Under the pieces are notes generated by a model, which saw only the letters and a program-made list of their open reading frames with translations, made no database searches and was not told the DNA's origin. A DNA stretch of 64,000 bases from IMG/VR virus record IMGVR_UViG_3300013121_000046; one strand, given 5' to 3'. Position 1 is the stretch's first letter. Every line of letters starts with the position of its first letter. The position numbers and the translations under genes are program-made. This DNA is from a virus (lineage: Duplodnaviria; Caudoviricetes). Positions 1-17,120 of this stretch are shown here, piece by piece.

Positions 1-41
1 CTTATTTGTATCCTCATAATAATCGGGCAACAAATCTCTCC

Positions 42-329
42 CTAGGATATCCCATCTAAAAACCAACGCGGGAGTTGTTTCACCAACTCTGGGGAATATA
101 GCGTACTACTCTTAGTCCGTGACCACATTTTTTCATTAAAAATAGCTACTACTACTGAACTAATGTACTGACCATTCATACCTTTGAATGAAGACCTATC
201 CTTTGATGGGCGTAGGGTCATAATTAAAGAGTAACCTTTATCATATCTTAAAGTCAAAACCTTCACATTTTTTACTCCAGCCTTACGTAAAAACTTCCTT
301 AGAACCCTCTTGGGGTACCGATCAAGCAT
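42..329 (-). CDS. small array protein (Y..DL..L..KL family)
   Basis: N-term RYPKRVLRKFLRK, C-term LPRWF motif; GGAGG RBS. Confidence 0.7.
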   Translation of the reverse strand: MLDRYPKRVLRKFLRKAGVKNVKVLTLRYDKGYSLIMTLRPSKDRSSFKGMNGQYISSVVVAIFNEKMWSRTKSSTLYSPELVKQLPRWFLDGIS

Positions 330-441
330 AATATCTTATCCCCTCCAGACCCTTTCAGACCACAAAGAATACTCAGGTTCAAGTCGATCTTACTGATTAT
401 CGCATTAAGATTCGTGCCGATGTATTTGGCTTTAGTATTTT

Positions 442-666
442 TCAGGATACTCCTTTCCAAAACCAAGCCGGGACCTTATTCTTAGCTTCACTTGAAGACC
501 ATAAATGCTCCCAGATGCCATCAAACCTAGATAGAACTATATAGATTTCATCTTGGTTATTAGGCATCCACCACGTTTCTTCCTCTTCTGAGTATAAGAA
601 GTATATCTGAACCCCGAGTACACTTAACTTCCTCAATAACTTAAGCATGTCAAAATATGAATACAT
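442..666 (-). CDS. small array protein
   Basis: MYSYFDMLKLLRKL; C-term VPAWF. Confidence 0.75.
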   Translation of the reverse strand: MYSYFDMLKLLRKLSVLGVQIYFLYSEEEETWWMPNNQDEIYIVLSRFDGIWEHLWSSSEAKNKVPAWFWKGVS

Positions 667-724
667 AACTTAAACTAACCCTCGCCTATGCCGGCAGAGA
701 AGTAGCCCTCGGAATAACTACACA

Positions 725-973
725 TCAAGGTACTAGACTGTTCCAAACCCAATCGGGACACTTCTTGCTCTTGGAACAACCTCGCGACCAGTGATCTCTC
801 CGCCTTACTGCTAATAAGCCGGAATCATTTGTATCTAATCGGGATCTCCCTACGGATACTAGAGTAGGGTAGAAAACCCCAGTAGATACTGTAACACTAA
901 GGATATTTTGGTTTAGGGCCTTGGCCATTAATCTGGCGATATCAGGTCTCGAATAATGTCTTCTCCTAGCCAT
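725..973 (-). CDS. small array protein
   Basis: HYSRPDIARLMAKAL; C-term CPDWVWNSL. Confidence 0.75.
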   Translation of the reverse strand: MARRRHYSRPDIARLMAKALNQNILSVTVSTGVFYPTLVSVGRSRLDTNDSGLLAVRRRDHWSRGCSKSKKCPDWVWNSLVP

Positions 974-976
974 AAT

Positions 977-1252
977 TTACCACAATCCCTCTAGCACCCA
1001 CTCTGGAACACCTCTAATACTGTGCATTTCTATATCAATCAGACGATGGGAGATATACCCCCAAATTTTTAACTCTCCTCTTGACTTTGGAAATAGAACA
1101 AAAGAGCCTTCGTCAATTAGAAAAAATACCCTTAAAACAAAAGGATTGTCATCAGGGTGGGAGGAATTACCAAAACCAGGGTAGATAAGCAGTTTCTCTC
1201 CCGTCACCCCCTCCATAAGCATCTTCAAATCCGAAAGACTGTACATACCCAT
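977..1252 (-). CDS. small array protein
   Basis: MYSLSDLKMLMEG; C-term VPEWVLEGL. Confidence 0.75.
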   Translation of the reverse strand: MGMYSLSDLKMLMEGVTGEKLLIYPGFGNSSHPDDNPFVLRVFFLIDEGSFVLFPKSRGELKIWGYISHRLIDIEMHSIRGVPEWVLEGLW

Positions 1253-1362
1253 CTTTCCGCTCGTTTCCTAGCCCACTCCGGGCATAGTATCCCCCTGAAA
1301 ATATATACCTAAAAAGAAATAGCCAGTGGGGGGAATTCCACTGGAGATTGCTAGAAAGCGTA

Positions 1363-1644
1363 TTAGAAATGTCGAAAGCTTTTCCCCCAAATATGGGGTA
1401 GCAAGCTTTCTATTTCCTCTAGGGAGGTCTGCGCCAGGACTCGCCAGGTCTTATGCGACTCCACCCACCGTATGCCCGTGCAACCGTCGATACCCAAAAA
1501 ATGTATGCAGATCATCTGTAAATCCGCTACGATTTTCAAGGAAAGGGTCGAGCAAAGGATATTGACAAACACATACCGAGACCTGGAACAACTCATCTTT
1601 ACACAGGCTGCTTTCAGATACTTCAAATTATACCTTGTTAACAT
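1363..1644 (-). CDS. small array protein
   Basis: MLTRYNLKYL; paralog of the adjacent 1664-1966 ORF (WR..A.T.L.E....LP..W..S). Confidence 0.7.
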   Translation of the reverse strand: MLTRYNLKYLKAACVKMSCSRSRYVFVNILCSTLSLKIVADLQMICIHFLGIDGCTGIRWVESHKTWRVLAQTSLEEIESLLPHIWGKSFRHF

Positions 1645-1663
1645 TCCACCACCTTGTATGCGA

Positions 1664-1966
1664 TTAAGCTCCTAAACCAAGGTTACAAAAGTACTGGAGA
1701 CTATTACTCCAGGTGTCGGGTAAAACTCTTTTAAGCTCATTCAGGGTAGTAGCAAAAACGGGTCGCCAGTAGGCCTCGGGCTGAGAAAGTCTCAACAGAA
1801 TATTCCAACCGCCTTCAGCAACTAAAATTCTAATTGAGGTCATATTCACAAATGGGTCCATATCCACATAAGAAAATACCGTCTCCACAATTACCTGGGG
1901 TGATCCCGGCTCACAGGCCTTCTCCACCAATCTACCTACATGCCTAAAATTATACTTAGTTAGCAT
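1664..1966 (-). CDS. small array protein
   Basis: MLTKYNFRHVGRLVEK; C-term LPDTWSNSL. Confidence 0.75.
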   Translation of the reverse strand: MLTKYNFRHVGRLVEKACEPGSPQVIVETVFSYVDMDPFVNMTSIRILVAEGGWNILLRLSQPEAYWRPVFATTLNELKRVLPDTWSNSLQYFCNLGLGA

Positions 1967-1985
1967 TTTACCTAAATCCTACTGC

Positions 1986-2228
1986 CTACGCCTCGACTTG
2001 CGTACTTACCCACACCCAAAAAAAGTCCCTAGAGAAAGCCCACTGATGTTTCTTACAAATCGCAGCCCCTGACCGACCCGGGACAGTACTATTTCCGCTA
2101 TTCCAAATGGCGACACATACCCCCCTATTATCCTGCCCAATTATTGCCTCAGAATCCCTCCATAATCTACCGCTACCTTCAATTGTTCGGAATAACCTAC
2201 TCAAATGCCGCATGGAGTATCTAGGCAT
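1986..2228 (-). CDS. small array protein
   Basis: MPRYSMRHLSRLFRTI; GGAGG RBS. Confidence 0.7.
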   Translation of the reverse strand: MPRYSMRHLSRLFRTIEGSGRLWRDSEAIIGQDNRGVCVAIWNSGNSTVPGRSGAAICKKHQWAFSRDFFWVWVSTQVEA

Positions 2229-2271
2229 CGGAAAAACCTCCCGTGTACTTAGACTATTTCGAGACTACATA

Positions 2272-2496
2272 CTATGATCCCACAAGCATCTCTGGCAATC
2301 TTCGTTCGATCACACTAATCTTCCAAAGACACCTTGGGTAACGTGCATTAGGATTTACCCAAACTTGATCGGACAGCGTATCTCTACAAGACAACCAGTA
2401 AGAATTTAATAGGTCGTCTTTCGTTAAGAAAACATTCCTACCTAGTAACTTTTTCAATAGCCTAACCAACACGTTTCTTGAGTACTTAGAGGACAT
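2272..2496 (-). CDS. small array protein
   Basis: KYSRNVLVRLLKKLLG. Confidence 0.7.
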   Translation of the reverse strand: MSSKYSRNVLVRLLKKLLGRNVFLTKDDLLNSYWLSCRDTLSDQVWVNPNARYPRCLWKISVIERRLPEMLVGS

Positions 2497-2573
2497 TCGA
2501 GGCGCACTCCACTGTTGTTTGATTAAGAAGAGTCTCTTTGGGTCAAAGCCCTGAAAGTACTTCCTTATCCATT

Positions 2574-2882
2574 TTAAGTATTTGTTCCGGCTCTTCTACG
2601 ATCTGCCCTGCGTCGAGACTTCTTAATTACAAAGCCTTCGGGGATCACCCAGAGGGTAAGGACCCTACCACTGGTGACAACTTCTCTTGGCCAAACTTTT
2701 AAGTGCAGATTTACTGCGGCATCGGCACAAGAGAGATTTTCGGGAGAGACTTTTTCTCGGGTAGCTAAGGTTGAAACTAACATATAACTTGTTAGCTTCT
2801 CGGGTAATATGTAAAATCTATACCCTCGCCGGATAAGCAGCTTATAAAAAAGCTTACTCAAATGTTCATAGGAGTACTGCAT
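2574..2882 (-). CDS. small array protein (start re-assigned to ATG 2882)
   Basis: MQYSYEHLSKLFYKLL matches the family N-terminus. Confidence 0.65.
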   Translation of the reverse strand: MQYSYEHLSKLFYKLLIRRGYRFYILPEKLTSYMLVSTLATREKVSPENLSCADAAVNLHLKVWPREVVTSGRVLTLWVIPEGFVIKKSRRRADRRRAGTNT

Positions 2883-2973
2883 AACCCAAAGGGGGCTGGA
2901 GGTAAAATATCCGGAGAGTGCTATAGGCAACCCGAGGCTGCAAGGCTGTAGATTAAACCGCCACAAAAACCTC

Positions 2974-3234
2974 CTAAGACGCTAGTCCCCGGTCACAAGT
3001 AAGACTATATATAAACCACTTCGGGTGGCTCTCTGCATGAAATGAACGCCAATAATAATTTCTCCAGTATAAAAATGGTCCAGATAAAGTAGGGGCGGAA
3101 GTAAACTCTAACCACCAACGGGAGGGAGAGTCTCCAAATCTGTCCCCGCAATTTAGAGGTGAAAATACTCCACACACTTTTTGGCGAAGTATCTTTTCCA
3201 TCAGAACATTCAAATCTAGATTAGTATACTTCAT
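2974..3234 (-). CDS. small array protein (start re-assigned to ATG 3234)
   Basis: MKYTNLDLNVLMEKIL; C-term HPKWFIYSL. Confidence 0.75.
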   Translation of the reverse strand: MKYTNLDLNVLMEKILRQKVCGVFSPLNCGDRFGDSPSRWWLEFTSAPTLSGPFLYWRNYYWRSFHAESHPKWFIYSLTCDRGLAS

Positions 3235-3244
3235 TTTTTGATGC

Positions 3245-3529
3245 CTATTCTTGTCGCCAAGACGGTCCAAGCTTGAAGTGGCTAAAACTTACCCTGGTCC
3301 AGAGGGGCAACTCTTCCAGACCCGGTACTAAGCCATCCGAACATTCAAGTCGCCACTCATTAGACCACCAACGTAAATCCCCATAAGCTTCCCCTGTATC
3401 GCTATGGATTCTCCAGAATCTCGGGGAGGGATAAATGTTTACGAAGGTAGAAAATCCTAACTGCGCAAAGAACTTACTACCCAAAATTTTTTCCGTCAAA
3501 GCATTTAAGGCTGCAACAGAGTATTTCAT
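3245..3529 (-). CDS. small array protein
   Basis: MKYSVAALNALTEKILG; LPLW; ATGA overlap with upstream gene. Confidence 0.75.
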   Translation of the reverse strand: MKYSVAALNALTEKILGSKFFAQLGFSTFVNIYPSPRFWRIHSDTGEAYGDLRWWSNEWRLECSDGLVPGLEELPLWTRVSFSHFKLGPSWRQE

Positions 3530-3798
3530 ACTAACTTCTTTACTATGTCTGGATAACTTAAACTAATTTTAGCCCAGTTAGGAAATACTCCAAACTTTGG
3601 TCCATAGGGTTGTAGACAACACTCAATACTACCCCAACCCAAAAATATATAACACTCGCTATCCGCAGACATACTCCAATGTGGAGGCACCCTCTCTGAG
3701 AACTCAACATATGGAAAAAGGTTCAACGTTCCGAACAGTTCCCTACGGAGTATCTTCTCCATCAGAAAAGTTATGTCTGCTAAAGAATACCATATCAT
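3526..3798 (-). CDS. small array protein
   Basis: WYSLADITFLMEKIL; FPNWAKISL. Confidence 0.75.
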   Translation of the reverse strand: MIWYSLADITFLMEKILRRELFGTLNLFPYVEFSERVPPHWSMSADSECYIFLGWGSIECCLQPYGPKFGVFPNWAKISLSYPDIVKKLV

Positions 3799-3827
3799 GT
3801 ACTAAGGACCTTCGCATTAAAAAATAG

Positions 3828-4145
3828 TTAAGAACGTGTCGGGTCATTACGCAATCGAGGGATGCTTGGGACAGCCCACAAGTGAAATATCCCATCAGAT
3901 TCCCACAGAAATTGCCGACCTCTGAGCCCTTCCAAATAACTAGTAAACACCCATTGCCCTCGAATGAAGTATAACATCAAAATATCTTCAGAAAAATTGT
4001 CCCTTACCCTAGAAAAGACATACCCTATTATATAAGAAGATGTATCAGAGGATCTACCATAGTAGGTACCGAGGTTCCTTATGGTTACCCCAGGCTTCCT
4101 AATGCTTCGCATCAGTTTCAGCACATCTATTTCAGAGTATCGCAT
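3828..4145 (-). CDS. small array protein
   Basis: MRYSEIDVLKLMRSI. Confidence 0.7.
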   Translation of the reverse strand: MRYSEIDVLKLMRSIRKPGVTIRNLGTYYGRSSDTSSYIIGYVFSRVRDNFSEDILMLYFIRGQWVFTSYLEGLRGRQFLWESDGIFHLWAVPSIPRLRNDPTRS

Positions 4146-4201
4146 CTATCAGTAAGCCTTCTCAATTTTGGATTTTACCGTAATCAGTAAGTGCCCAATA
4201 A

Positions 4202-4501
4202 TCAAATTGGGTTAAGTGTCCAATAGTCAAAATAATTTAAGCTTTGCTTAAACCACTCAGGAATACATTTTCGATCCAGCCGGTATGTCTTTTTAGCCCA
4301 AAGAGTTCCAGATACCCAGTAAGCTCCACCAAAAAGTAAAAAAGCGGTATCCGGTTTTACCGTTGTCGCTATACTCCATAACCAAGGGGAACCTGGAAGA
4401 TTATCAAAATCTCCCACTGAGATTTGTGCAAGACTCTCAGAACTTTGGACACGGCTCTTTTGTAGAAGCCCATTCAAATCTCGAAAAGAGTAGTATCGCA
4501 C
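4202..4501 (-). CDS. small array protein
   Basis: YYSFRDLNGLLQK; IPEWFKQSL. Confidence 0.75.
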   Translation of the reverse strand: MRYYSFRDLNGLLQKSRVQSSESLAQISVGDFDNLPGSPWLWSIATTVKPDTAFLLFGGAYWVSGTLWAKKTYRLDRKCIPEWFKQSLNYFDYWTLNPI

Positions 4502-4518
4502 TCATTATTCCTAGCTAA

Positions 4519-4815
4519 TTACGATTCCAGACTATCCACAAACCATTTAGGGATATCCACAGACTCTAAGTACAGCCCAAGGGTACGACAGTATATTCCC
4601 GCCAGTCCACAGATTGGCTCCAAGTAGATTTCTAAACTCTTACCATCACGGTAGCGAATAAGCTTCCATCTAATATCCTGCTTAAGCTTCTTTGCACTCC
4701 ACATTCCGGAAAAACCTCCTAGCGAATCTAAGTTAAAGATTTTTTCAAGGAGTCTACTCCTATCTGAATTAGAATATTTGATGTACATAACCCCCGGGGA
4801 TTGGGTGTTATTCAT
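4519..4815 (-). CDS. small array protein
   Basis: KYSNSDRSRLLEKIF; IPKWFVDSL. Confidence 0.75.
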   Translation of the reverse strand: MNNTQSPGVMYIKYSNSDRSRLLEKIFNLDSLGGFSGMWSAKKLKQDIRWKLIRYRDGKSLEIYLEPICGLAGIYCRTLGLYLESVDIPKWFVDSLES

Positions 4816-4823
4816 TGTATCCC

Positions 4824-5087
4824 TTAAATTTCACTCTCTATGGGAAATAGAGCCAAACTTTTTTTTATCCACTTGGCATACCGACTTGACCGACGACACC
4901 TGTACATGGGCAACCATTGCTTGTACTTTGTGTCCCAAGCCAAGAACAGGTCTCCTCGCCCTTTACCGACCAGCTTCTCCGGCCCTAGCAACAGGGTCTC
5001 AGGGGGCATTGGGATGATCTTGCTCCGCTGCTTAGCAATTCGGAACACAAATCTCTTAACATCTGTGAATTGATACCAAGGCTGCAT
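4824..5087 (-). CDS. small array protein
   Basis: WYQFTDVKRFVFRI; GGGGGTGGG RBS. Confidence 0.65.
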   Translation of the reverse strand: MQPWYQFTDVKRFVFRIAKQRSKIIPMPPETLLLGPEKLVGKGRGDLFLAWDTKYKQWLPMYRCRRSSRYAKWIKKSLALFPIESEI

Positions 5088-5117
5088 AAGCCCACCCCCC
5101 TTATCGAGGTATAGTAC

Positions 5118-5966
5118 CTACGGAGTATGGATGGCTCGAAACATAGGTCGAGTAGGCAGATTCTTCAAAATGGCCAATCCAGCCCTTTCTTGAGCAATAT
5201 CAACGTATTCACGGACGATATCAGCACCAGCCGCCCTCCGATTATGAAGCAAAGCCGCACAGAGGGCAGAGCCTACCCCCATATAAGGATCTAGAAGAAG
5301 TTCCCCGGGCCTAGTCATGGATAGTACTAATCTCTCGACAAGCTCTACCGGAAACTGGCATGGATGCTCTGTTTTCTCTATGTGATTATGCTTCACATTA
5401 GGAATGATCCAAACATCCCCAGGGTTCTTGCCCAATGGGTTGCAAGATAGTTCCCCCTTCCGAGGACCTTTGAAATACTTCTTACCTGGATACTTCTGAG
5501 GAACCCTTACAGGGTCTAAGTTAAAATAATACGAGTCAGACTTGGTAAACCAGAGAATAGTTTCGTACCTTCCAGAGAATCTCTTTGCGCAATGTAAGCC
5601 GTGTTCAAAATGCCACACTATCCGATTCCTAAGCTTCATACCCATATTATGTATGATCGGATGGAGGGCTATATCTAAAGGCAATATCTCACCCTTTGAA
5701 ACTAACATATTTCCTACTTGCCAGCATAAGTGTCCCGTGGGTGATAAAACCCTAACACATTCCCTTAAAACATCTGTTTGACGACGTAGGTACTCGCTCA
5801 AGTCAGAAACCACCTCATACCTTTTTCCTAAATTATAGGGCGGTGAAGTAACCACTAACTGAACTTCATTATCCGGTATATCCTTTAACAGGTCTAAACC
5901 CTCGCCAAAATGTAGATTAACTTTGGCCTCCCTAACATACTTCCTTGCTGCTTCTTCTTGTGACAT
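5118..5966 (-). CDS. orphan beta-class DNA methyltransferase (probably N4-cytosine)
   Basis: Motif IV TSPPY near N-term, HPCQFP, motif I DPYMGVGS near C-term; RBS GGAGAGG before ATG 5966. Confidence 0.92.
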   Translation of the reverse strand: MSQEEAARKYVREAKVNLHFGEGLDLLKDIPDNEVQLVVTSPPYNLGKRYEVVSDLSEYLRRQTDVLRECVRVLSPTGHLCWQVGNMLVSKGEILPLDIALHPIIHNMGMKLRNRIVWHFEHGLHCAKRFSGRYETILWFTKSDSYYFNLDPVRVPQKYPGKKYFKGPRKGELSCNPLGKNPGDVWIIPNVKHNHIEKTEHPCQFPVELVERLVLSMTRPGELLLDPYMGVGSALCAALLHNRRAAGADIVREYVDIAQERAGLAILKNLPTRPMFRAIHTP

Positions 5967-6124
5967 ATCTAAACCTCTCCCGTATGATCGCTGACAGTAG
6001 GAAATGTACATTGCCCCTGGAGAGTGTTCCCTTTTCCAAGAGGGTCAACCCTCGACAAGTCAAAAAATATATATATTCTGCTCCGGATCCTCGCTAGTTA
6101 CACCCCAGAAGACTAACCTGCGAT

Positions 6125-6463
6125 CTACGTATTGTAGGCTCTGAGAATAAGCCAAAGTCTTCTTAATGTATTTACTAACGAATCTCTGTAGGTCCTTCTT
6201 GGGGTACAGCATAAATGTTTCAGACTCTCCTGATCCAAAGGTACAAGCCCTGATAACATAGAAGCATCACCTTGATCGTACAACCAAATTCTCCAGGGCT
6301 TAAGAATATACTCTGGATGATAGTATATTAACGTGTGTCTTGATTTATTAGGTACAAAACAAAAATAGTAAAGAGCACTAGACGCATCCCCCCTATAAAG
6401 GCCACAATGACCAAACATCTTCGCCATTAAATTCAAAATATCTTTCGGGGGATAATATCGCAT
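6125..6463 (-). CDS. small array protein
   Basis: MRYYPPKDILNLMAKMFG. Confidence 0.75.
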   Translation of the reverse strand: MRYYPPKDILNLMAKMFGHCGLYRGDASSALYYFCFVPNKSRHTLIYYHPEYILKPWRIWLYDQGDASMLSGLVPLDQESLKHLCCTPRRTYRDSLVNTLRRLWLILRAYNT

Positions 6464-6487
6464 TTCTCTTATTGGCACTTAAAAATA

Positions 6488-6727
6488 CTAAACCAAAAAC
6501 CAAATAAGCCTTTCAGAGGTCTTTCCGACTCCCAAATCCGGCGACTCTTTGTATCCCCAAACAATGCGGAAGAAAGACCCCTTACACTCACCGAATACAG
6601 TAGCCGTAGCAGTAAACACTAATTTTAACGTTGGCGGTAATGCAAACGGATAGCTCTTAAAATTAGTCAAAGACATTCCAAAGTACTTACTTACAAGCAA
6701 TTTTACATCTTCACTTTGGTAGAACAT
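6488..6727 (-). CDS. small array protein
   Basis: MFYQSEDVKLLVSKYFG. Confidence 0.75.
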   Translation of the reverse strand: MFYQSEDVKLLVSKYFGMSLTNFKSYPFALPPTLKLVFTATATVFGECKGSFFRIVWGYKESPDLGVGKTSERLIWFLV

Positions 6728-6987
6728 AAGTACCCCAGAATGCTGCCACTCAAAACCTCAAATTCTTTCAGACCTTCCCCTCCCAGTCTAGTATACCACA
6801 ACCCATCCTCGGCTTTTATTAGTTTATCCAAACCTGGCAATTGATATAAAAAAATGGTCTGCCTACTCTGCACCGTAAAATAACACATAATCGCAAAATT
6901 ATCAAATTTCGGAGCACCCCTCTCTACCTGATAGCCTAAAAGTTTCTCAAGCAATTGCCTAATAATTTTTGGTGGGAAGTATTTCAT
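6703..6987 (-). CDS. small array protein
   Basis: MKYFPPKIIRQLLEKLLG. Confidence 0.75.
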   Translation of the reverse strand: MKYFPPKIIRQLLEKLLGYQVERGAPKFDNFAIMCYFTVQSRQTIFLYQLPGLDKLIKAEDGLWYTRLGGEGLKEFEVLSGSILGYLCSTKVKM

Positions 6988-7244
6988 ATGGGGTACTGCA
7001 AAACAGGAGAGTCGATTAATGGTCCCGAATATCGCAGCTTTCTCCTAAGATATACCTTAGCAAAATATGTGGTGCTAATAACTACTCCCTGTTGCTTAGG
7101 TAATTTATAAAATACATTACCCCAGTAGACATACGGCTCACACTGCTCATCCTGAAGCGTAATGTAATTCCCCTTTTGCTTCAAGCACAAAAGGGGAGCC
7201 CAAAGTTTACTCGTAAGCCTAAAAACATCTTCTAAAGAGTACAT
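6984..7244 (-). CDS. small array protein, amplified subfamily copy 1
   Basis: MYSLEDVFRLTSKLWAPL...PVLQYPI; near-identical to four neighbours. Confidence 0.8.
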   Translation of the reverse strand: MYSLEDVFRLTSKLWAPLLCLKQKGNYITLQDEQCEPYVYWGNVFYKLPKQQGVVISTTYFAKVYLRRKLRYSGPLIDSPVLQYPI

Positions 7245-7368
7245 CTCACCAAACCCGAGAAGGTTTACCTAATCTAGTATTACTCTTTTTAATAGCACTA
7301 GAAGCTCGCCAAATCTGTATCGCCTCTCTATTCCAAGCAGTAGGTTTTAGTTCTTTAGCTGTGCTGCT

Positions 7369-7644
7369 TCATAGAGGGTACCGCAAAACAGGAGAGAAGG
7401 TTGATGATCCCTGATCGTGCAGCTTTTCCCTAAGTTTGATTCTAGCCCAAAGTGAGACACCCATAACTAAATTAATACTATTCTGTCTCCCCTTAAAACA
7501 CCTAGAAGGGAAGTAAAAGATATTACCGCAGTAGCGACCCAGATCATCCTGAAGCCTAATATTACCTGTCATATTCCTCTTTGAACACAAAATGGGAGCC
7601 CAAAGTTTACCTGTAAGCCTAAGAAGATCTTCTGAAGAGTACAT
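7369..7644 (-). CDS. small array protein, amplified subfamily copy 2
   Basis: MYSSEDLLRLTGKLWAPI...PVLRYPL. Confidence 0.8.
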   Translation of the reverse strand: MYSSEDLLRLTGKLWAPILCSKRNMTGNIRLQDDLGRYCGNIFYFPSRCFKGRQNSINLVMGVSLWARIKLREKLHDQGSSTFSPVLRYPL

Positions 7645-7750
7645 CTCACCAAACCCGAGAGGGCCTACCTAATCTAAACTACGAAGGGTTGATTGCAATC
7701 TCCGCCTCTCTATTCCAAGCAGTAGGTTTCAGTTCTTTAGCTGTGCTGCT

Positions 7751-8026
7751 TCATAGAGGGTACTGCAAAACAGGAGAGAAAGTTGATGACCCCTGATCGT
7801 GCAGCTTGTCCCTAAGATATAGCCTAGCCGAAAATGAGACACCCATAACTAAATTAATACTATTCGGTCTCCTCTTAAAACACCTAGAAGGGACGTAAAA
7901 GATATTACCGCAGTAGCCACCCCGCTCATCCTGAAGCCTAATATTACCTGTCGTACTCCTCCTTGAGCACACAAGAGGAGCCCAAAGTTTACTCGTAAGC
8001 CTAAGAATATCTTCTGGAGAGTACAT
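7751..8026 (-). CDS. small array protein, amplified subfamily copy 3
   Basis: MYSPEDILRLTSKLWAPL...PVLQYPL. Confidence 0.8.
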   Translation of the reverse strand: MYSPEDILRLTSKLWAPLVCSRRSTTGNIRLQDERGGYCGNIFYVPSRCFKRRPNSINLVMGVSFSARLYLRDKLHDQGSSTFSPVLQYPL

Positions 8027-8134
8027 ATCACCAAACCCGAGAGGGTCTACCTAATCTACTAACTACGAAGGGTTAATTGCAATCTCCGTCTCTCTATTCC
8101 AAGCAGTAGATTTCAGTTCTTTAGCTGTGCTGCT

Positions 8135-8386
8135 TCATATAGGGTACTGCAAAACAGGAGAGAAAGTTGATGACCCCTGCTTTCGCAGCTTTTCCCTAAG
8201 ATATGTCCTAGCCAAATATGTGGTTTTAATAACTACTCCCCATTGCCCAGGTATTATATAATATACATCACCGCAATAGCCACCCCGCTCATCCTGAAGC
8301 ATAATGTAATTATCCTTTTGCTTCAAGCACACAAGAGGAGCCCAAAGTTTACCCGTAAGCCTAATAATATCTTCTGAAGAGTACAT
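8135..8386 (-). CDS. small array protein, amplified subfamily copy 4
   Basis: MYSSEDIIRLTGKLWAPL...PVLQYPI. Confidence 0.8.
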   Translation of the reverse strand: MYSSEDIIRLTGKLWAPLVCLKQKDNYIMLQDERGGYCGDVYYIIPGQWGVVIKTTYLARTYLREKLRKQGSSTFSPVLQYPI

Positions 8387-8492
8387 CTCACCAAACCCGA
8401 GAGGACCTACCTAATCTAAACTACGAAGGGCTAATTGCAATCTCCGTCTCTCTATTCCAAGCAGTAGATTTCAGTTCTTTAGCTGCGCTGCT

Positions 8493-8753
8493 TCATATGG
8501 GGTACTGCAAAACAGGAGGGTCGGTTAATGATCCCGAATCTCGCAGCTTTCTCCTAAGATATGCCTTAGCCGAATATGTGGTGCTAATAACTACTCCATG
8601 TTGCCCAGGTAATATAAAAGATACATTACCCCAGTAGCCATACTGCTCACCCCACTTACCCTGAAGCCTAATGCAATTCTTACTTTGCTTCAAGCACACA
8701 AGAGGAGCCCAAAGTTTACCCGTAAGCCTAAGAAGATCTTCTGGAGAGTACAT
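8493..8753 (-). CDS. small array protein, amplified subfamily copy 5
   Basis: MYSPEDLLRLTGKLWAPL...PVLQYPI. Confidence 0.8.
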   Translation of the reverse strand: MYSPEDLLRLTGKLWAPLVCLKQSKNCIRLQGKWGEQYGYWGNVSFILPGQHGVVISTTYSAKAYLRRKLRDSGSLTDPPVLQYPI

Positions 8754-8754
8754 C

Positions 8755-9015
8755 TCACCAAACCCGAGAGGGTCTACCTAATCTAGTATTACTCTTTTTA
8801 ATCGCACTAGAAGCTCGCCAAATCTGTATCGCCTCTCGATTCCTTCTCCCTAAAATTTTATTTACGTAGGTAACCTGCTCATCCACCCGACCCCAAGTCA
8901 AAATCCCAAATTGGGTTCGTACTTGATAAATATCTTCCAACGTAATGTGCATCCAAACATCCATTCCAAATAATCTCTCAACGAGCGATGCTAAATTCTC
9001 CTTAGAGTAAAACAT
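8755..9015 (-). CDS. small array protein
   Basis: MFYSKENLASLVERLFG; its 3' end is the source of part of the repeat spacer. Confidence 0.75.
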   Translation of the reverse strand: MFYSKENLASLVERLFGMDVWMHITLEDIYQVRTQFGILTWGRVDEQVTYVNKILGRRNREAIQIWRASSAIKKSNTRLGRPSRVW

Positions 9016-9028
9016 CTCAAGCCTCTAT

Positions 9029-9307
9029 CTATCTGCGAGGGGATATCTTAAACTTACCGTTAGAGTACTTGAGTCTGAATTCCATGTTGAGAAAATATGC
9101 GGAATTTACGGGAACTCCCAGGGGGCGAATCGCAATCTCCACCTCTCTATTCCCGGCAGCAGATTTCAGTTCACTAGTAGCAGATAGCCTGAAATAGAAA
9201 TCATTTCTAAAATGCACTACAAAAGTCGGCTCATCCAATTCCCAATCTATCTCGGGGAAGAGTTTGGTAGCCAACTGCACCAGAGATATTAGCGAGTAAC
9301 CTACCAT
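9029..9307 (-). CDS. small array protein
   Basis: GYSLISLVQLATKLFPEIDW; GGAGG RBS. Confidence 0.75.
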   Translation of the reverse strand: MVGYSLISLVQLATKLFPEIDWELDEPTFVVHFRNDFYFRLSATSELKSAAGNREVEIAIRPLGVPVNSAYFLNMEFRLKYSNGKFKISPRR

Positions 9308-9449
9308 CCATCCTCCCAGCTAGTTTATTTAGCTGAGTACATAGATACTACCTCTGAGGGGGGGGTAACATCCCGGGCCCTTCGGCTATACAGATATACC
9401 CTAAAATAGTCGGAGAGGCGTCTAGATAATACCAGAAATAGGTATACGC

Positions 9450-9752
9450 CTACAGAGCATCCAAACGGGGAACATCCTGGGAGATCCCGCCCCCGAAATA
9501 GATTTTCCCACCAAAGAGAAGTATGTCAGAGAGCTTTCGCTTAGAGAAATCCCCTGGAGTCACTTCCCAGGTCGCCTGAGACCATTGGTATTGAAATCCA
9601 TTAGAGAATACCTGGTCCCCTCGGTAGCGGATAAAGCAAAGCCGATACTGATAGCCCTCCCTGTAGCTCGCTACCAACCAATCAACGTGCGGGTGTAAAA
9701 TCCGCATAAGTCTAATTAGATCAGAAAAGTTAAACCTCTGAAGAATTCCCAT
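9450..9752 (-). CDS. small array protein
   Basis: RFNFSDLIRLMRILHPHVDW. Confidence 0.7.
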   Translation of the reverse strand: MGILQRFNFSDLIRLMRILHPHVDWLVASYREGYQYRLCFIRYRGDQVFSNGFQYQWSQATWEVTPGDFSKRKLSDILLFGGKIYFGGGISQDVPRLDAL

Positions 9753-9786
9753 TAGGGGGTACCTGTCGGATACGCTGTTCCCAGGA

Positions 9787-10128
9787 TCAGCCTACTACTA
9801 GAGGCGACTCTTGACTAACTATACCCCTACCCATAAAGAGTCTTCCCTGGAATCTTGGAAAGGACTCCATTAACCCGATACGAAGAAACTGGAATCTTGG
9901 CGAGGACTCCATTAACCCGATACGAAGAGAAGAGAGATTCTTAGGTTCTACTTTTTCACACAACTGGTCAAATAACAGGTCTGCATCCAAGGGGTGCATG
10001 TTCCGATCTGCCTTTAGCAGCAGATACCCAGGGGAATTCTTATCGTACACAGCACACCAATCCCGTGAATCAGTTAACTTATTACACAAGTTAATCAGTG
10101 TGTCAAAATTATATCGAGTATAGGGCAT
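9787..10128 (-). CDS. small array protein with internal 42-bp duplication
   Basis: RYNFDTLINLCNKL; LRIGLMES(S/F)PRFQ occurs twice. Confidence 0.7.
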   Translation of the reverse strand: MPYTRYNFDTLINLCNKLTDSRDWCAVYDKNSPGYLLLKADRNMHPLDADLLFDQLCEKVEPKNLSSLRIGLMESSPRFQFLRIGLMESFPRFQGRLFMGRGIVSQESPLVVG

Positions 10129-10379
10129 TATACCGGTACAAAATTTGAATCGCTACCAACTGCGGGTCGAATAAAGACGCGATAATAGAAAATTAAATAA
10201 GCATTGATGAGTCTCTCATATCTCAGAACGTGAGTCCCCTCCCCTTGTGATACAAAAAATGTAGCCTGGGGATCGGCTAGGCGGAGTAGGAAATCAAAAA
10301 ATGTACTCTGTAATTTCTCCCTGGGGACTGAAAGCAAAGCATCAGCAAGTGGGTACAAGTCCTTTCGTTCATAGAGCAT
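10128..10379 (-). CDS. small array protein
   Basis: MLYERKDLYPLADALL. Confidence 0.65.
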   Translation of the reverse strand: MLYERKDLYPLADALLSVPREKLQSTFFDFLLRLADPQATFFVSQGEGTHVLRYERLINAYLIFYYRVFIRPAVGSDSNFVPV

Positions 10380-10390
10380 GTTGATATTCC

Positions 10391-10735
10391 CTACTTCCAA
10401 AAGTCGGCCCAGAATTTTCTAAACTTACCTTTAGGGGAAGAGCATGACAAACGCTCAATCCCTGCCCCGTCTAAAAAGCTTGAGCATACCAAACCCTCAA
10501 TCCCTGCCCAATCCAAATCCAAAAAGCTTGGGCAGGGACCATTGGCCCACACCCTGAAAGATAACTGCCAAACTCTGTGTTTATATCTTTCATAAGACAC
10601 CCATCGCCAACTACGCCCGTAGCGCCCGACATAAATAAAGGAGTCTGCTTCCTCAGGTTCCAACCTATTAGGTTTTGGATTAGGGCAAAGCTTGAAGAAG
10701 AGGTTAACAATATCCTTTCTAGGGTAGTAGATCAT
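10391..10735 (-). CDS. small array protein
   Basis: YYPRKDIVNLFFKLCP; paralog of 10739-11101; internal SFLD..AGIE duplication. Confidence 0.75.
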   Translation of the reverse strand: MIYYPRKDIVNLFFKLCPNPKPNRLEPEEADSFIYVGRYGRSWRWVSYERYKHRVWQLSFRVWANGPCPSFLDLDWAGIEGLVCSSFLDGAGIERLSCSSPKGKFRKFWADFWK

Positions 10736-10738
10736 ATC

Positions 10739-11101
10739 CTACTTTCTGATAGCCCTTTTGTGTTCTCTTCGGCTCCAAACAACTTTACGCATTGTCCGCA
10801 TCTCCTCAGATGTGTGATTCAAGTATAGTACCCCTAAGGAATCAAAGAACAAATTGACGCCTATGCCCGGACTCCTCTTATAGTCTGGACAAATTCTCCA
10901 AGTATGTGGCCTAAAACCCCCATAGAAAAACCACTTCATATATCCTAAAGGATAGTAAGGCGATCCATGTTTACGGATGTAGGTACTGAGATAATCCTGC
11001 ATATCATTATCAAACTTAAGGGCCTCCGGACCCTCCCAATAAGGATCCGGACAAAGTTTGAAGAAGAAACTAACGATATCTTTCTTAGAGTAGTGACCCA
11101 T
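10739..11101 (-). CDS. small array protein
   Basis: HYSKKDIVSFFFKLCP. Confidence 0.75.
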   Translation of the reverse strand: MGHYSKKDIVSFFFKLCPDPYWEGPEALKFDNDMQDYLSTYIRKHGSPYYPLGYMKWFFYGGFRPHTWRICPDYKRSPGIGVNLFFDSLGVLYLNHTSEEMRTMRKVVWSRREHKRAIRK

Positions 11102-11104
11102 GAC

Positions 11105-11500
11105 TTACTTTATTTCTACTCCTGACATTTTAATAAAGGGGAACCTCGACCATTCCCCGTACTTCTTCCAAATCAAGGAATTCAATACCCAATCAGGGAT
11201 TGTATTCCAGGCCTCTTCTGTCGCCCTAAGAATCTCCCACCTAACAATCGTAGACAAATTACCATTAGCCAAAGGAGCCGGGGCAACTCGATATTCCAAA
11301 CAACAGGATGACCGGCCGTCCTCATTTACCAAAGAGGGTAAACCTAAAATAACACTTCCCGCATCCAACAAGGCCTTTCTATTAAAATAAAATGTTGTTC
11401 CACAGTTGGTCCAGCCTGTTGAAGTACCTGCTATAGTAGGATGCCAAGAGCCACCTAAGCACCCTCTAAGTAACGTTAACACGTCCGAGATTGAATACAC
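11105..11500 (-). CDS. small array protein
   Basis: MYSISDVLTLLRG; IPDWVLNSL. Confidence 0.75.
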   Translation of the reverse strand: MYSISDVLTLLRGCLGGSWHPTIAGTSTGWTNCGTTFYFNRKALLDAGSVILGLPSLVNEDGRSSCCLEYRVAPAPLANGNLSTIVRWEILRATEEAWNTIPDWVLNSLIWKKYGEWSRFPFIKMSGVEIK

Positions 11501-11562
11501 TACTAATCCCTTTTATTTTCAGGATACCTTAACCTGTATCTTAACTTTATACTGAAAGAGGT

Positions 11563-11844
11563 CTACGACTTCAAACTTTTAAGTACCCAATCTGGTATAT
11601 GGTTAAACAACCCTTTGTAATGATACATAATGCCCCATACCCTAGATGGGCCTAATAAACAAAGCCCTAAGCCCGCGAGAAGCTGCCCCTGCCTTTCAAC
11701 CCCCGAAACAATCTGCCTATCACCCAAATAAAGCCTTCCCAGGTCATCCGCACTCCACTCACAAAGAACCACTCCTCGATTACATGCCGCTCGCATCTTG
11801 TGAAAGAGCCTCTGTAGGTCTCTACCAGAATAGAAAGAACTCAT
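11563..11844 (-). CDS. small array protein
   Basis: FYSGRDLQRLFHKM; IPDWVLKSL. Confidence 0.75.
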   Translation of the reverse strand: MSSFYSGRDLQRLFHKMRAACNRGVVLCEWSADDLGRLYLGDRQIVSGVERQGQLLAGLGLCLLGPSRVWGIMYHYKGLFNHIPDWVLKSLKS

Positions 11845-12008
11845 GGAACAACCCGTAATAATTATTTCCTAAACTACTTGAGGCATAAAAACCAAGGCCC
11901 TAAAAATTTTTCACCTACCCCAATAAGAGGTATAGGCAAGCCTAAATAGGCCAGATTAAGCCAAAAGTAGGCTTCTTTTAAGCTCCTATATATACACTCA
12001 TCGGAGTC

Positions 12009-12524
12009 TTAATAAATCGCCCAAACAACCATCCTCACTAGGTAATCTAGCTTGGGTGATTTACTCTGTATCTCCGAAAGATTCTCAATCTCTACACCGG
12101 ACTCAAATATCATATCCCTGCAAACCCGGTCAAAAACTAATTTTCTATTACCCCCCGGCATGAAGAGAAAATAGACTCGATATGTAATATTAAGTTTCCC
12201 CTCTGTGTATAACCAAAAGGAATCCCCCAGATAGAGCAAAATCATCTTAGTCCGTTCAGGACTACTAATATCCTTACTTAATAGCACCGGAATTGATACC
12301 TTTCTCCATACCAAACCATCTCCCAATTTATTAACCAGGGCCTGAAAATCCTTCGGATGATACTTAGCTCGTTTGGGTAGGAAATACTTGATCTTCACCT
12401 TAAAAAACACATAAGAACAGATCAAAATCAAGAAGATCAGGCATAAACCGCAAAGAAATGATCCTAAGAAAATTACGGAGACTTCCCCGAGAATATCGAG
12501 AAAATCATTCCCATAGTTAGCCAT
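12009..12524 (-). CDS. array protein with N-terminal transmembrane helix
   Basis: Hydrophobic VIFLGSFLCGLCLIFLILICSYVFF followed by family motif KYHPKDFQALVNKL. Confidence 0.7.
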   Translation of the reverse strand: MANYGNDFLDILGEVSVIFLGSFLCGLCLIFLILICSYVFFKVKIKYFLPKRAKYHPKDFQALVNKLGDGLVWRKVSIPVLLSKDISSPERTKMILLYLGDSFWLYTEGKLNITYRVYFLFMPGGNRKLVFDRVCRDMIFESGVEIENLSEIQSKSPKLDYLVRMVVWAIY

Positions 12525-12963
12525 GATTCACCAGGGCTATTGGTAGGGTACCAAGGATTCGGGATACTGACCCCAAAGGGCCGGTCAGCTTATCGCCCAT
12601 AAAAATTGGGTATCTGACCGAATTATTTACTATGTGGTTTCCGGAGAATTTAGGATAATCATATTCATGGGATTTTAACATCAACCCCGCCATAAGCCAA
12701 ACTGTAAGCTGAGTCTTACGGATAAAAGTAGACTGCATCCCGACCTCTACAAGTGTGTTCCCGTAAATCACTAAGGGCTCCATTAGGAGAGTATTAAATG
12801 GCTCTGAGCAGCAGTCCGAACCCCTTTTTATACTATCCCCCAACAAATAGTAAGCTTCTGCATTACGCCAACCACACCGCCAAGAATACTTTGGCAGCAG
12901 CTTAGAGATTAGCTGTATTTGGTCTTGAGTGGAGTACTTAATTACTGAAGTACATTGCGCCAT
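12517..12963 (-). CDS. small array protein
   Basis: KYSTQDQIQLISKLLPKYSW. Confidence 0.7.
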   Translation of the reverse strand: MAQCTSVIKYSTQDQIQLISKLLPKYSWRCGWRNAEAYYLLGDSIKRGSDCCSEPFNTLLMEPLVIYGNTLVEVGMQSTFIRKTQLTVWLMAGLMLKSHEYDYPKFSGNHIVNNSVRYPIFMGDKLTGPLGSVSRILGTLPIALVNHG

Positions 12964-13252
12964 TTTTTATCCCTATCTTCCCAAGCTCACCTAAATCCTT
13001 ACTGCGTACATCTGCAAAATTATGTGAGTACCAAACTTGCCGACACCCCCGCCACTCAAACCCATGAATATTATTTTCATTTTTCGGATTAAGCTGATTC
13101 GTGTATACCAAAAGGACAATCCTAGACGAAAAAGATGTATGCCGGAAACACCCTCTAGTAAAAGAACAGTCGTCCTCAACTACCGCCCACTCATATCTCG
13201 GCCACAATTTATTCAAAAGTTCAAGCCGAGTCTTCACTGTATAGAATCGCAT
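12938..13252 (-). CDS. small array protein (first gene of the array)
   Basis: RFYTVKTRLELLNKLWPRYEW; directly after promoter motif, nearly leaderless. Confidence 0.7.
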   Translation of the reverse strand: MRFYTVKTRLELLNKLWPRYEWAVVEDDCSFTRGCFRHTSFSSRIVLLVYTNQLNPKNENNIHGFEWRGCRQVWYSHNFADVRSKDLGELGKIGIKNGAMYFSN

Positions 13253-13257
13253 ATACC

Positions 13258-13272
13258 TGTATACCCTAAAAA
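13258..13272 (-). promoter_or_regulatory. TTTT-N-GGGTATA promoter-like motif heading the small-gene array
   Basis: TTTTTTAGGGTATACA on minus strand, immediately after a terminator. Confidence 0.55.
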
Positions 13273-13313
13273 ATAAAGGCAGTCCCCCACAATTCAGGGG
13301 GACTGCCTTTATT
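13272..13313 (-). terminator. intrinsic terminator
   Basis: 17-bp perfect inverted repeat AATAAAGGCAGTCCCCC/GGGGGACTGCCTTTATT followed by T run on minus strand. Confidence 0.85.
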
Positions 13314-13336
13314 CTGATTCCACGGGCTTACCAACC

Positions 13337-13867
13337 CTAGATCCTAAAAGCTGCCCCGACCACGGACAAGGATCGAGCAGCCCGAGCTACAGCTATGTAG
13401 GAAGGTTTCCCTGGGGTCTCAGCAAACACAACCATCACTGTAGCCGCATACCCCTTGGGAAGAAATTCTGAAGCCTTGTTCGTAGCGTAGAAGAAAGCCC
13501 CAGAGGCATCTGGCCCAATTGGAGTCATCTGCACCCCAGGAATCATAAACTCGGGAGAGACCTCCTTTACTCCGATTTCTGGGGCTGATTTACCCATAAC
13601 CAGGGCTGTCTGAGCCGCCAAATTGATAGTCTGCAACTTCGTATCCTCAAGCCTTTCTGGCTTAAACACATACAGAGTCGCTTCCTTATATTGCCCTTGC
13701 CCCAACTCTACTCCTACTGACCAGGAGGACTCTGTTCCAGATTCATCTACCTGCTGATAGGTTTGCTGAACTACATCACACAAACATAATTCGTAGACTT
13801 GAGTCTCCGCAGTCAAACTATCCGGCTGAAACACCCGAGGAAACTGCGAAGCTGTCTTCAAAAGCAT
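13337..13867 (-). CDS. hypothetical protein
   Basis: 176-aa ORF with AGGAG RBS. Confidence 0.75.
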   Translation of the reverse strand: MLLKTASQFPRVFQPDSLTAETQVYELCLCDVVQQTYQQVDESGTESSWSVGVELGQGQYKEATLYVFKPERLEDTKLQTINLAAQTALVMGKSAPEIGVKEVSPEFMIPGVQMTPIGPDASGAFFYATNKASEFLPKGYAATVMVVFAETPGKPSYIAVARAARSLSVVGAAFRI

Positions 13868-13891
13868 GGGAACACTCCTATTGGTATATGA

Positions 13892-15337: not shown

Positions 15338-15378
15338 ACTTTTTTATTACTCCCTGAAAACTGCGTTATTCCCTAAAA

Positions 15379-15452
15379 TGAGCAATGAGGGACTCGAACC
15401 CCCGACCCCCACGGTGTAAACGTGGTGCTCTAACCAACTGAGCTAATCGCTC
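15379..15452 (-). tRNA. trnV: tRNA-Val(TAC)
   Basis: Cloverleaf GAGCGAT..TAGCTCAGTTGGTTAGAGC..CCACG-TTTACAC-CGTGG..GGTTCGAGTCC..ATTGCTC-A. Confidence 0.93.
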
Positions 15453-15493
15453 GATTCTTACTCTGCTCTTCTGCGTTATTCCCTACTAAGATA

Positions 15494-15727
15494 CTATCCT
15501 CGCCGGGGGGTTCCCCAGAAATTCTGTTCGTAATCTTCGACCTCCCACTGTTCTCGCTTCTGGATTTCTTGGCCCTGCCGAAAAATCCGATTCTCGATAG
15601 ACCCGGGTGGGTACGGGTTATTGGCCCGGGGGTGGTCTTTCCCCTCCTGACAAATACGGTCAAAATACCGCTCATTCTCCGTCAGATAGATAGAGCCACC
15701 CCGAGTATTGACGATGCGCCGACTCAT
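15494..15727 (-). CDS. hypothetical protein
   Basis: 77-aa ORF with GGAGGG RBS. Confidence 0.65.
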   Translation of the reverse strand: MSRRIVNTRGGSIYLTENERYFDRICQEGKDHPRANNPYPPGSIENRIFRQGQEIQKREQWEVEDYEQNFWGTPRRG

Positions 15728-15782
15728 CTTTCCCTCCCTGCGTGACTCGAACAGACCAGCGATTTCGGATTGTTGCCCAACT

Positions 15783-16010
15783 TCACACCGGCAAAGTTTC
15801 CGAGACAGACAGCTTCAGACTGAACTTGTCCGTCTCCGCTCCGTCCCGGTAAAAAGCCATGACTCCGTTCAGATAATCCACAAAGATGGACTCAACCTTC
15901 TCTCCCACCGGATATGGCCCTACCGGCTGTACCAAGGTGCAGCCGTAGAACTGATACCCACCCTCCCCCATGTCATCCCACCGTTCCCAGTCGAAAAGTT
16001 GCTTCTCCAT
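15783..16010 (-). CDS. hypothetical protein
   Basis: 75-aa ORF after promoter motif at 16062-16075. Confidence 0.65.
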   Translation of the reverse strand: MEKQLFDWERWDDMGEGGYQFYGCTLVQPVGPYPVGEKVESIFVDYLNGVMAFYRDGAETDKFSLKLSVSETLPV

Positions 16011-16165
16011 TTAATGAACCCCCAAGTTTGTGACCAAAGTTTGAATTCTCCCCGTTAAGGTGCTATACCCCAAAATAAACCTGGTTTGAAGAAGCTTTGT
16101 CAAAAATCCATAGGAATCACTAACACCTTTTTCAAAGATACGTATTTAGGCAACTCACAACTATA

Positions 16166-16318
16166 CTACGGCTTTCTCCCAAGGATCGGAGGTTTCTTCC
16201 TCCGCTGATCGGAAAGAACAAACCAATGATAAAGAACCCAAGAGAGTCCTGCGGTGAGTATCAGGGACACAATTGAGCAAAGCACAATCAAAAACAGCGC
16301 CATAAGTATCTCAGCCAT
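16166..16318 (-). CDS. small membrane protein (50 aa, not in ORF track)
   Basis: MAEILMALFLIVLCSIVSLILTAGLSWVLYHWFVLSDQRRKKPP...; GAGG RBS. Confidence 0.6.
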   Translation of the reverse strand: MAEILMALFLIVLCSIVSLILTAGLSWVLYHWFVLSDQRRKKPPILGRKP

Positions 16319-16320
16319 AA

Positions 16321-16758: not shown

Positions 16759-16786
16759 ATGGCTTGCTCCCTAGATTATTTCAATA

Positions 16787-17059: not shown

Positions 17060-17120
17060 ATTTTCCCTTTAACGCAACGACTACCCCGGATTAAGAATCG
17101 CCCCTATATACTGTATACCC

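Follow-up and report, generated by a model that had tools for sequence, protein, structure and literature searches.

What is the run of small, co-oriented genes that fills positions 42-13252 of the window, as we call the whole 64,000-nt stretch of phage DNA analyzed here (IMG/VR record IMGVR_UViG_3300013121_000046, a virus of the Caudoviricetes), and what could it do for the phage that carries it? An earlier note, made from the letters of the window, had described an array of small paralogs, each with a constant N-terminal helix and a hypervariable body, and had read it as a library of effectors sharing a docking or targeting helix. The array observation as a whole is confirmed. We describe a lineage-specific protein family, here called YS-DL, with at least 37 copies, whose members are small, mostly basic and rich in Trp, Tyr and Phe, and we tentatively propose that they are cytoplasmic alpha/beta proteins used as a repertoire of binders in the conflict between phage and host. 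The descriptive part of this proposal is much more secure than the functional part.

The array and its shared N-terminal motif

The window is all-minus-strand phage DNA with a GC content of 41-49%, and its plus strand has a strong negative GC skew. A protein database places the proteins of the window on a single contig of 236,349 bp, and the phage is therefore a jumbo phage. The ORF listing and alignment A1 reveal 36 consecutive open reading frames (ORFs) in 42-13252, all on the minus strand and encoding 74-171 amino acids; together with a methyltransferase gene, they cover 87% of the interval. Six gene junctions overlap and a further 13 are of 30 nt or less (19 of 36 in all). The features of the array are the following.

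42-13252, minus strand: the whole in-window part of the array, with 36 full-length YS-DL genes, one 50-amino-acid copy and one embedded methyltransferase gene
42-5087, minus strand: 16 "head plus tail" genes, whose products start with the YS-DL helix, keep a conserved Trp and end in a P-x-W-F-x-x-S-L helix
5118-6011, minus strand: a DNA methyltransferase, the sole non-member within the array (phrog_67, E 5e-59)
6060-6212, minus strand: a short 37th copy of 50 amino acids, recognized from its held-out motif score (12.1 bits) and the ORF list
6125-13252, minus strand: 20 genes, mostly with the head motif alone and with bodies that are not detectably alike
6984-8753, minus strand: five recent tandem copies with a period of 358-384 bp and a ratio of non-synonymous to synonymous substitution rates (dN/dS) of 0.9 to 4.8
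12009-12524, minus strand: a membrane-anchored member, identified from its sequence, with its motif site at 12365

Compared with shifted frames, all 36 annotated frames give the best fit to a codon model trained on the large conserved genes of the window, and the third-position base composition of the array genes matches that of the same conserved genes. Because codon fit, base composition and the 87% coding density agree, the array ORFs are judged to be real genes, translated in the annotated frame. The last 88 nt of gene 6125-6478 are shared, in a different frame, with the beginning of the short copy 6060-6212; an old frameshift or indel may have extended one gene or truncated the other.

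All 36 ORFs share a 13-residue head with the consensus Y-S-x-x-D-[LIV]-x-x-L-x-x-K-[LIM], which bears out the claim that every ORF of the array apart from the methyltransferase carries this motif. In alignment A1, the first position is Tyr in 34 proteins and Phe in 2, the Ser is present in 22, the Asp in 24 and the [LIV] in 31; position +8 is Leu in 32 and Phe in 3, and the Lys, at +11, is found in 28. In 34 of the 36 proteins the Tyr falls at residues 2-7, and in another it is residue 10. The last, 12009-12524, is the TM-anchored member that had been singled out as containing the motif internally: its Tyr is residue 55, behind a transmembrane (TM) helix. This protein begins with an acidic N-terminus, followed by the TM helix, a Lys/Arg-rich segment (K-V-K-I-K-Y-F-L-P-K-R-A-K) and the YS-DL domain, a topology that, by the positive-inside rule, would place the domain in the cytoplasm.

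To score the motif we used a hidden Markov model (HMM) of 15 columns built from the array heads, with a site threshold of at least 8 bits. The minus strand of the array contains 36 such sites and its plus strand none; the other 50.7 kb of the window, read in six frames, likewise contain no site. Since the HMM was trained on the same sites, the scoring was repeated in a leave-one-out scheme, removing each member together with its close paralogs; the median score was then 7 bits, and 18 of the 36 members reached at least 7 bits, against a background of roughly 1 per Mb. The copy at 6060-6212 lay outside the training set when it obtained its score. As controls, unrelated viral and metagenome loci totaling 1.08 Mb were scored; they gave a single site of at least 8 bits, or about one per Mb.

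The codons of the conserved positions vary synonymously (TAC/TAT 19/15 for Tyr, all six codons for the +8 Leu, and AAG/AAA 16/12 for Lys), so the conservation is at the level of the protein, where selection maintains the motif. Homogenization of the head by recombination, or a repeat at the level of the DNA, was considered and rejected, as the conserved residues have synonymously differing codons.

Behind the head, little is shared. At E < 1e-3, an all-against-all phmmer search without the heads linked the members of the five-copy subfamily 6984-8753 and joined 1363 to 1664, but made no other links; three further pairs appeared at E < 1e-2; shuffled controls gave 0-1 and 0-2 pairs at the two thresholds, respectively. 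In a leave-one-out test of a body profile, the left-out member scored above all 246 negative ORFs in just 6 of 36 cases. The bodies are thus hypervariable in the literal sense, and the picture of a constant head on bodies that cannot be aligned stands. What remains in common is one Trp, invariant in a 22-sequence alignment (A3) and preceded by a hydrophobic strand, and a C-terminal tail, [LIV]-P-x-W-[FV]-x-x-[SG]-[LIV]. The tail is strict in 7 copies, relaxed in 11-12 and recognizable in about 17 of 36, which makes the previous estimate of about a third a fair one. It is carried by all 16 genes of 42-5087 and by two exceptions within the 6125-13252 block, 11105-11500 and 11563-11844. In composition, 30 of the 36 proteins have an isoelectric point (pI) above 7.5, and six are acidic or neutral. 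Relative to control genes, the family is enriched in Trp (2x), Tyr (1.5x), Phe, Cys, Met and Arg and depleted in Ala, Glu and Thr.

Duplication, selection and predicted fold

The array grew by repeated local tandem duplication, as the similarity of neighboring genes had suggested. The best body match of a protein lies within 2 genes in 13 of 36 cases, where 3.9 are expected (permutation, p = 6e-4), and the five-copy repeat has its regular period of 358-384 bp. The spacers of this repeat (106-124 nt, at 7245-7368, 7645-7750, 8027-8134 and 8387-8492) are decayed gene remnants, derived from the 3′ end of 8755-9015 and from inside 9029-9307; one 55-nt spacer block matches the coding sequence 9123-9177 at 84% identity. 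From these gene remnants it follows that whole segments were duplicated by unequal recombination, after which the surplus pieces decayed.

Two genes also contain internal tandem duplications of 42 nt (14 amino acids), namely 9787-10128 (at 9847-9928, 95% identity) and 10391-10735 (at 10440-10517, 83%), and duplication therefore acts within genes too.

Among the old pairs, synonymous divergence (dS) is saturated. Within the young subfamily 6984-8753, dN/dS by the NG86 method ranges from 0.87 to 4.8. The members of the youngest pair, 6984 and 8493, differ at 33 nt, 31 of them non-synonymous and 2 synonymous (NG86 dN/dS 4.8; binomial test, p = 0.014). When 33 random substitutions were simulated with a transition:transversion count of 21:12, the mean number of synonymous changes was 9.6, and two or fewer occurred with p = 3.5e-4. 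For 8135 versus 8493, dN/dS is 2.6. The comparison of close pairs that had been proposed as a check thus shows an excess of amino-acid change in the youngest copies (31 vs 2, p about 3.5e-4), and so provides evidence that selection has been diversifying, at least during the latest burst. Elsewhere, values near 1 fit either mixed purifying and positive selection or relaxed constraint.

A diversity-generating retroelement was considered as a source of the variation and rejected: the 33 differences between 6984 and 8493 involve all bases and are not adenine-specific (T>C 8, A>G 7, T>G 5, among others), although no search was made for a reverse transcriptase.

The minimal member of the family, 442-666 (74 amino acids), was modeled by AlphaFold2 with alignment A3 at a mean predicted local distance difference test score (pLDDT) of 83 and a predicted template modeling score (pTM) of 0.66. 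The model consists of a helix at residues 4-16, a strand at 20-24, a loop, a hairpin of strands 42-48 and 51-57, and helices at 59-64 and 67-73. A less confident model of 42-329 (pLDDT 65) shows these elements in the same order. We infer that the family is built on one small alpha/beta domain. A homodimer prediction of 442-666 scored 0.00, which we count neither for nor against oligomerization.

In the model, the head motif lies in helix 1. Helices are commonly capped by a hydrophobic staple, here N′ = Y and N4 = L, and by a capping box, here N-cap = S and N3 = D, so that Y-S-x-x-D-L reads as a hydrophobic staple and capping box that open an amphipathic helix. L+5, L+8, h+9 and L+12 would form one face of this helix, and that face is probably buried. 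Comparison of the five close paralogs shows fixed residues at the motif positions and varying ones at the exposed x positions of helix 1 (residues 4, 7, 8 and 12); because the latter vary among such close relatives, a conserved docking surface is unlikely. The motif is more simply understood as part of a predicted fold core, helix 1 of a compact alpha/beta domain, than as a detachable docking tag. A helix-turn-helix protein with a MerR/Xis-like first helix, suggested by the resemblance to M-Y-[ST]-x-x-[ED]-L-x-x-L-T-G, was rejected, as there is no Pfam match and the model continues with beta-strands.

Searches for known structures and families gave no relative. Foldseek with the low-confidence model had no match in the PDB at E < 1e-3. 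With the pLDDT-83 model, VIA-align against 48,161 PDB representatives reached a best Z of 3.8, which is no match, a shape search of the ESM Atlas returned generic small alpha/beta rows only, and BFVD returned nothing; a feature search of the ESM Atlas gave no usable match. At the sequence level, the family has no match in Pfam, PHROGs or NCBIfam, its profile finds nothing among PDB sequences, and a megablast search with the array finds no match among 50,697 phage records. The A1 profile found two matches in a word-limited search of 5.8e9 proteins, both of them the window's own. In a full HMMER search of 1.84e9 representatives it found 17, again all the window's own, a search whose sensitivity for unseen members is limited, so that absence elsewhere is unproven. 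A back-translated M-Y-S...D...L...K pattern matched 75 loci in IMG/VR, once each, in a chance-like manner and without clusters, and patterns from the five-copy subfamily had no match in IMG/VR or in GTDB genomes. The family thus appears, as had been supposed, to be undescribed; we regard it as new and specific to the lineage of this phage, the phenomenon of arrays in jumbo phages being already known.

Transcription signals and neighboring genes

The array had been said to be headed by a terminator and a promoter, and corresponding elements are present at its upstream end. The following features lie within and upstream of the array.

9394-9406, minus strand: a second copy of the promoter-like motif, in a 142-nt gap within the array
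13259-13271, minus strand: the promoter-like motif TTTTAGGGTATAC, 6 nt ahead of the array's first ATG
13277-13308, minus strand: a terminator-like hairpin with a 12-bp stem and an 8-nt loop, followed by a T run, which closes the upstream unit
13892-15337, minus strand: a BCS1-like AAA+ ATPase, a context neighbor (BCS1_N PF08740, 1.1e-21; AAA PF00004, 3.8e-18; phrog_7485)
15379-15452, minus strand: a tRNA gene (Rfam RF00005, 68.5 bits), directly upstream of the promoter-like motif of the BCS1-like gene

Because the promoter-like motif ends 6 nt before the ATG, the first mRNA of the array would be leaderless or nearly so. The sequence TTTTRGGGTATAY, allowing up to 2 mismatches, occurs 19 times across the window, 18 of them on the minus strand, where 4.7 are expected; it is plausibly the phage's own promoter consensus. 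The 13-kb array contains 2-3 of these putative promoters. Motifs of the same type also precede the BCS1-like gene, a long ORF-free stretch, a tRNA-like sequence and unknown ORFs. The ORF-free stretch lies at 17180-17867 on the minus strand, beside a motif at 17875-17887, and an Rfam scan of 1-18500 assigned no family to it at the gathering threshold. At 22373-22385 (minus strand), a promoter-like motif stands 7 nt ahead of a sequence resembling the 5′ end of a tRNA, GGGTAGGTAGCTCAGACGGTAGAGCG (approximately 22300-22385), which suggests that the motif drives tRNA genes too.

The gene for the BCS1-like ATPase lies upstream of the array, at a distance of approximately 640 bp that includes a single gene, for an unknown protein of 176 amino acids. 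Its adjacency to the array is suggestive; the ATPase belongs to a separate transcription unit behind the terminator, and adjacency alone is weak evidence. The protein is 27-32% identical to jumbo-phage homologs, and its best matches in wider collections reach 30-36%. When the gene was used as an anchor in IMG/VR, JGI metagenomes and the 5.8e9 proteins, no relative above approximately 36% identity was found, and the loci recovered did not contain the YS-DL motif. With no closer relative of this ATPase among 5.8e9 proteins, the phage therefore represents an orphan lineage. A search for relatives of the RecA/UvsX-like gene and of a 693-amino-acid protein found none.

Possible roles of the YS-DL proteins and known systems

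The earlier interpretation is supported in part: the undescribed family, the hypervariable bodies and the local duplication are upheld by the results above, and the shared docking or targeting helix is not, given that the motif is helix 1 of a domain in the AlphaFold model and that its exposed positions are variable. The explanation that we favor, tentatively, is a lineage-specific repertoire of cytoplasmic binders. The invariant core of such proteins would consist of helix 1, with its N-cap, staple and buried face, and of one Trp in a beta-strand, joined in roughly one-third to one-half of the copies by the C-terminal P-x-W-F helix. Around this core, the surface residues would be free, or driven, to change. 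The copies would be deployed as binding proteins in the host cytoplasm, for host takeover or counter-defense, and each might be fitted to a different or fast-changing target. The orphan DNA methyltransferase embedded in the array is counted as supporting context for a conflict between phage and host, such methyltransferases being typical counter-restriction genes. The large tandem arrays of phages G and 121Q (PMC5646251) and the expansion in phage G (PMC7824862), described below, serve as precedents.

A number of points weigh against this explanation. We infer its functional part from the evolutionary pattern only. The signal of positive selection comes from one small subfamily and could be distorted by gene conversion, and several recent pairs have a dN/dS near 1, which fits relaxed constraint too. 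Homology of the bodies over the right-hand half of the array is not statistically demonstrable, the fold models cover two members (442-666 and 42-329), and the composition drifts toward the expectation for random sequence, with Ala, Glu and Thr low and Cys and Arg high. The language-model recognition score in the ESM Atlas is low. Finally, none of the collections searched contains a related phage in which gain and loss of copies between strains could be compared.

Some of these points would also be explained if the genes were near-neutral cargo of genome inflation, with the motif kept only for translation start or for the folding of a residual product. The dN/dS of about 1 in most recent pairs, the near-random composition with low language-model recognition, the decayed gene remnants in the spacers and the one truncated copy all agree with this possibility, and tandem duplication has been proposed as a route of genome expansion in jumbo phages (Hua et al., PMC5646251). 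We nevertheless consider it improbable, because 36 of 36 full-length frames are open at 74-171 codons with the codon preferences of the genome, the motif, the Trp and the C-terminal helix have been kept through saturated synonymous divergence, and the youngest pair has fewer silent changes than neutrality predicts (p = 3.5e-4), which is not drift. To a similar degree improbable is a set of packaged or ejected virion proteins whose N-terminal helix is a targeting signal like the capsid targeting sequence (CTS) of T4, with loading perhaps by the BCS1-like AAA+ translocase. The extreme N-terminal placement of the motif (first 7 residues) in 34 of 36 copies, the pI above 7.5 of 30 of 36 (T4 internal proteins are basic as well) and the ATPase gene about 640 bp away, beyond a single 176-amino-acid gene, would suit such proteins, and the internal proteins of T-even phages are a diverse counter-defense set with only the CTS in common (PMC3012670). 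Against this, no protease site is conserved after the motif (L-x-E at +8 to +10 in 8 of 36 proteins); the motif is degenerate and appears to be a structural helix cap in a compact domain, unlike the near-identical, detachable leader of T4; one member has its domain behind a TM anchor, on the predicted cytoplasmic side; and a conserved Trp and C-terminal helix are more than a tag in common. The ATPase, in its own transcription unit behind a terminator, adds little by adjacency.

Small basic proteins that bind nucleic acids, whether specific transcription factors or DNA- or RNA-coating proteins, are a less probable identity still. They would account for the basic, aromatic-rich composition (Trp 2x and Tyr 1.5x that of control genes), and the expansion of about 35 zinc-ribbon copies in phage G is a precedent (PMC7824862); yet the family has no known DNA- or RNA-binding fold or family match and no Cys pairs, six members are acidic or neutral, and such extreme surface variability is unexpected for proteins with a common nucleic-acid backbone as their target. 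Doubtful to a greater degree is the idea that YS-DL proteins are diversified clients of the upstream BCS1-like AAA+ translocase, with the N-terminal helix, with or without the P-x-W-F helix, as the recognition signal; the translocase would then load folded cargo into a membrane-proximal prohead for injection, or move it across the host inner membrane. The least probable of all, and in our view very unlikely, are exported peptides with a double-glycine-type leader, as in class II bacteriocins or ComC, and a variable cationic core. The first nine motif positions do resemble the L-S-x-x-E-L-x-x-I-x-G-G consensus of such leaders, and the bodies are cationic and aromatic, but G-[GAS] stands at the required distance in 3 of 36 proteins and a Lys at +11 in 28 of 36, no Pfam bacteriocin or leader family matches at E up to 0.1, and the motif is part of a domain that is folded in the model and that the TM-anchored member would place in the cytoplasm. 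No C39-peptidase ATP-binding cassette (ABC) exporter was found among the scanned larger ORFs of the window.

If the members do bind host defense or housekeeping proteins, the array would be a natural library of binders on a small scaffold and a source of new counter-defense proteins. Should the proteins instead be clients of the BCS1-like translocase, they would point to a phage-encoded route of effector delivery with a germline library of cargoes, and would be the first substrates for the widespread phage homologs of BCS1. In either case, jumbo phages repeatedly spend 5-10% of their genome on arrays of tiny, fast-evolving paralogs whose function is obscure, and the array described here is a clean case, with a 13-residue signature, a confidently modeled minimal domain of 74 residues and a recent five-copy burst. 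The excess of amino-acid replacements in that burst is the signature expected of arms-race proteins.

Several known systems resemble the YS-DL array in one respect or another. The promoter-early stem-loop (PeSL) cassettes in the hyperplastic regions of T4-type phages (Arbiol et al. 2010) likewise bring together many small genes without assigned function in a large phage. In the array described here, the genes are paralogs, 19 of 36 junctions overlap or are of 30 nt or less, and the 13 kb contain 2-3 promoter-like motifs, whereas PeSL genes have no relation to one another and are each served by their own early promoter and stem-loop. Among eukaryotic viruses, amplification of poxvirus K3L and the multigene families MGF110, MGF360 and MGF505 of African swine fever virus are genomic accordions or multigene families for which a role in host range and immune evasion has been shown by experiment. 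The likeness is in tandem duplication followed by rapid amino-acid divergence of genes thought to act against the host; the proteins are unrelated, and the array described here is known from sequence alone.

In T4, the CTS is a near-identical leader of approximately 10 residues that is cut at L/I-x-E by the prohead protease, and the proteins that carry it are largely basic. The internal proteins IPI, IPII and IPIII resemble the YS-DL family to the extent that a short conserved segment, at the extreme N-terminus in 34 of the 36 YS-DL proteins, heads very diverse small proteins, whereas the YS-DL motif is degenerate, is modeled as helix 1 and occurs together with a conserved Trp and a C-terminal helix. 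Nor is a prohead-protease site conserved in the YS-DL proteins: in addition to the 8 of 36 with L-x-E at +8 to +10, [LI]-x-E occurs anywhere from +8 to +25 in 10 of 36. The T-even internal proteins have been described as highly diverse, with the conserved CTS as their one common element (PMC3012670).

In layout, the YS-DL array is closest to those of phage G and coliphage 121Q, in which more than 30 genes stand in tandem (Hua et al. 2017, PMC5646251). Those arrays, like the one described here, consist of dozens of co-oriented small paralogs, duplicated in tandem in a phage genome of more than 200 kb and with no established function; with 37 copies in 13.2 kb, the YS-DL array likewise comprises at least 30 co-oriented tandem paralogs in a phage genome of at least 200 kb. 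For the approximately 35-copy zinc-ribbon expansion of phage G, a role as transcription factors or in nucleic-acid coating has been suggested (Iyer et al. 2021, PMC7824862), but here no member has two CxxC pairs, there is no Pfam match, and the sequences are unrelated. Moreover, the copies in phage G and 121Q are described as very similar, whereas most YS-DL proteins have diverged beyond pairwise detection in all but their 13-residue head.

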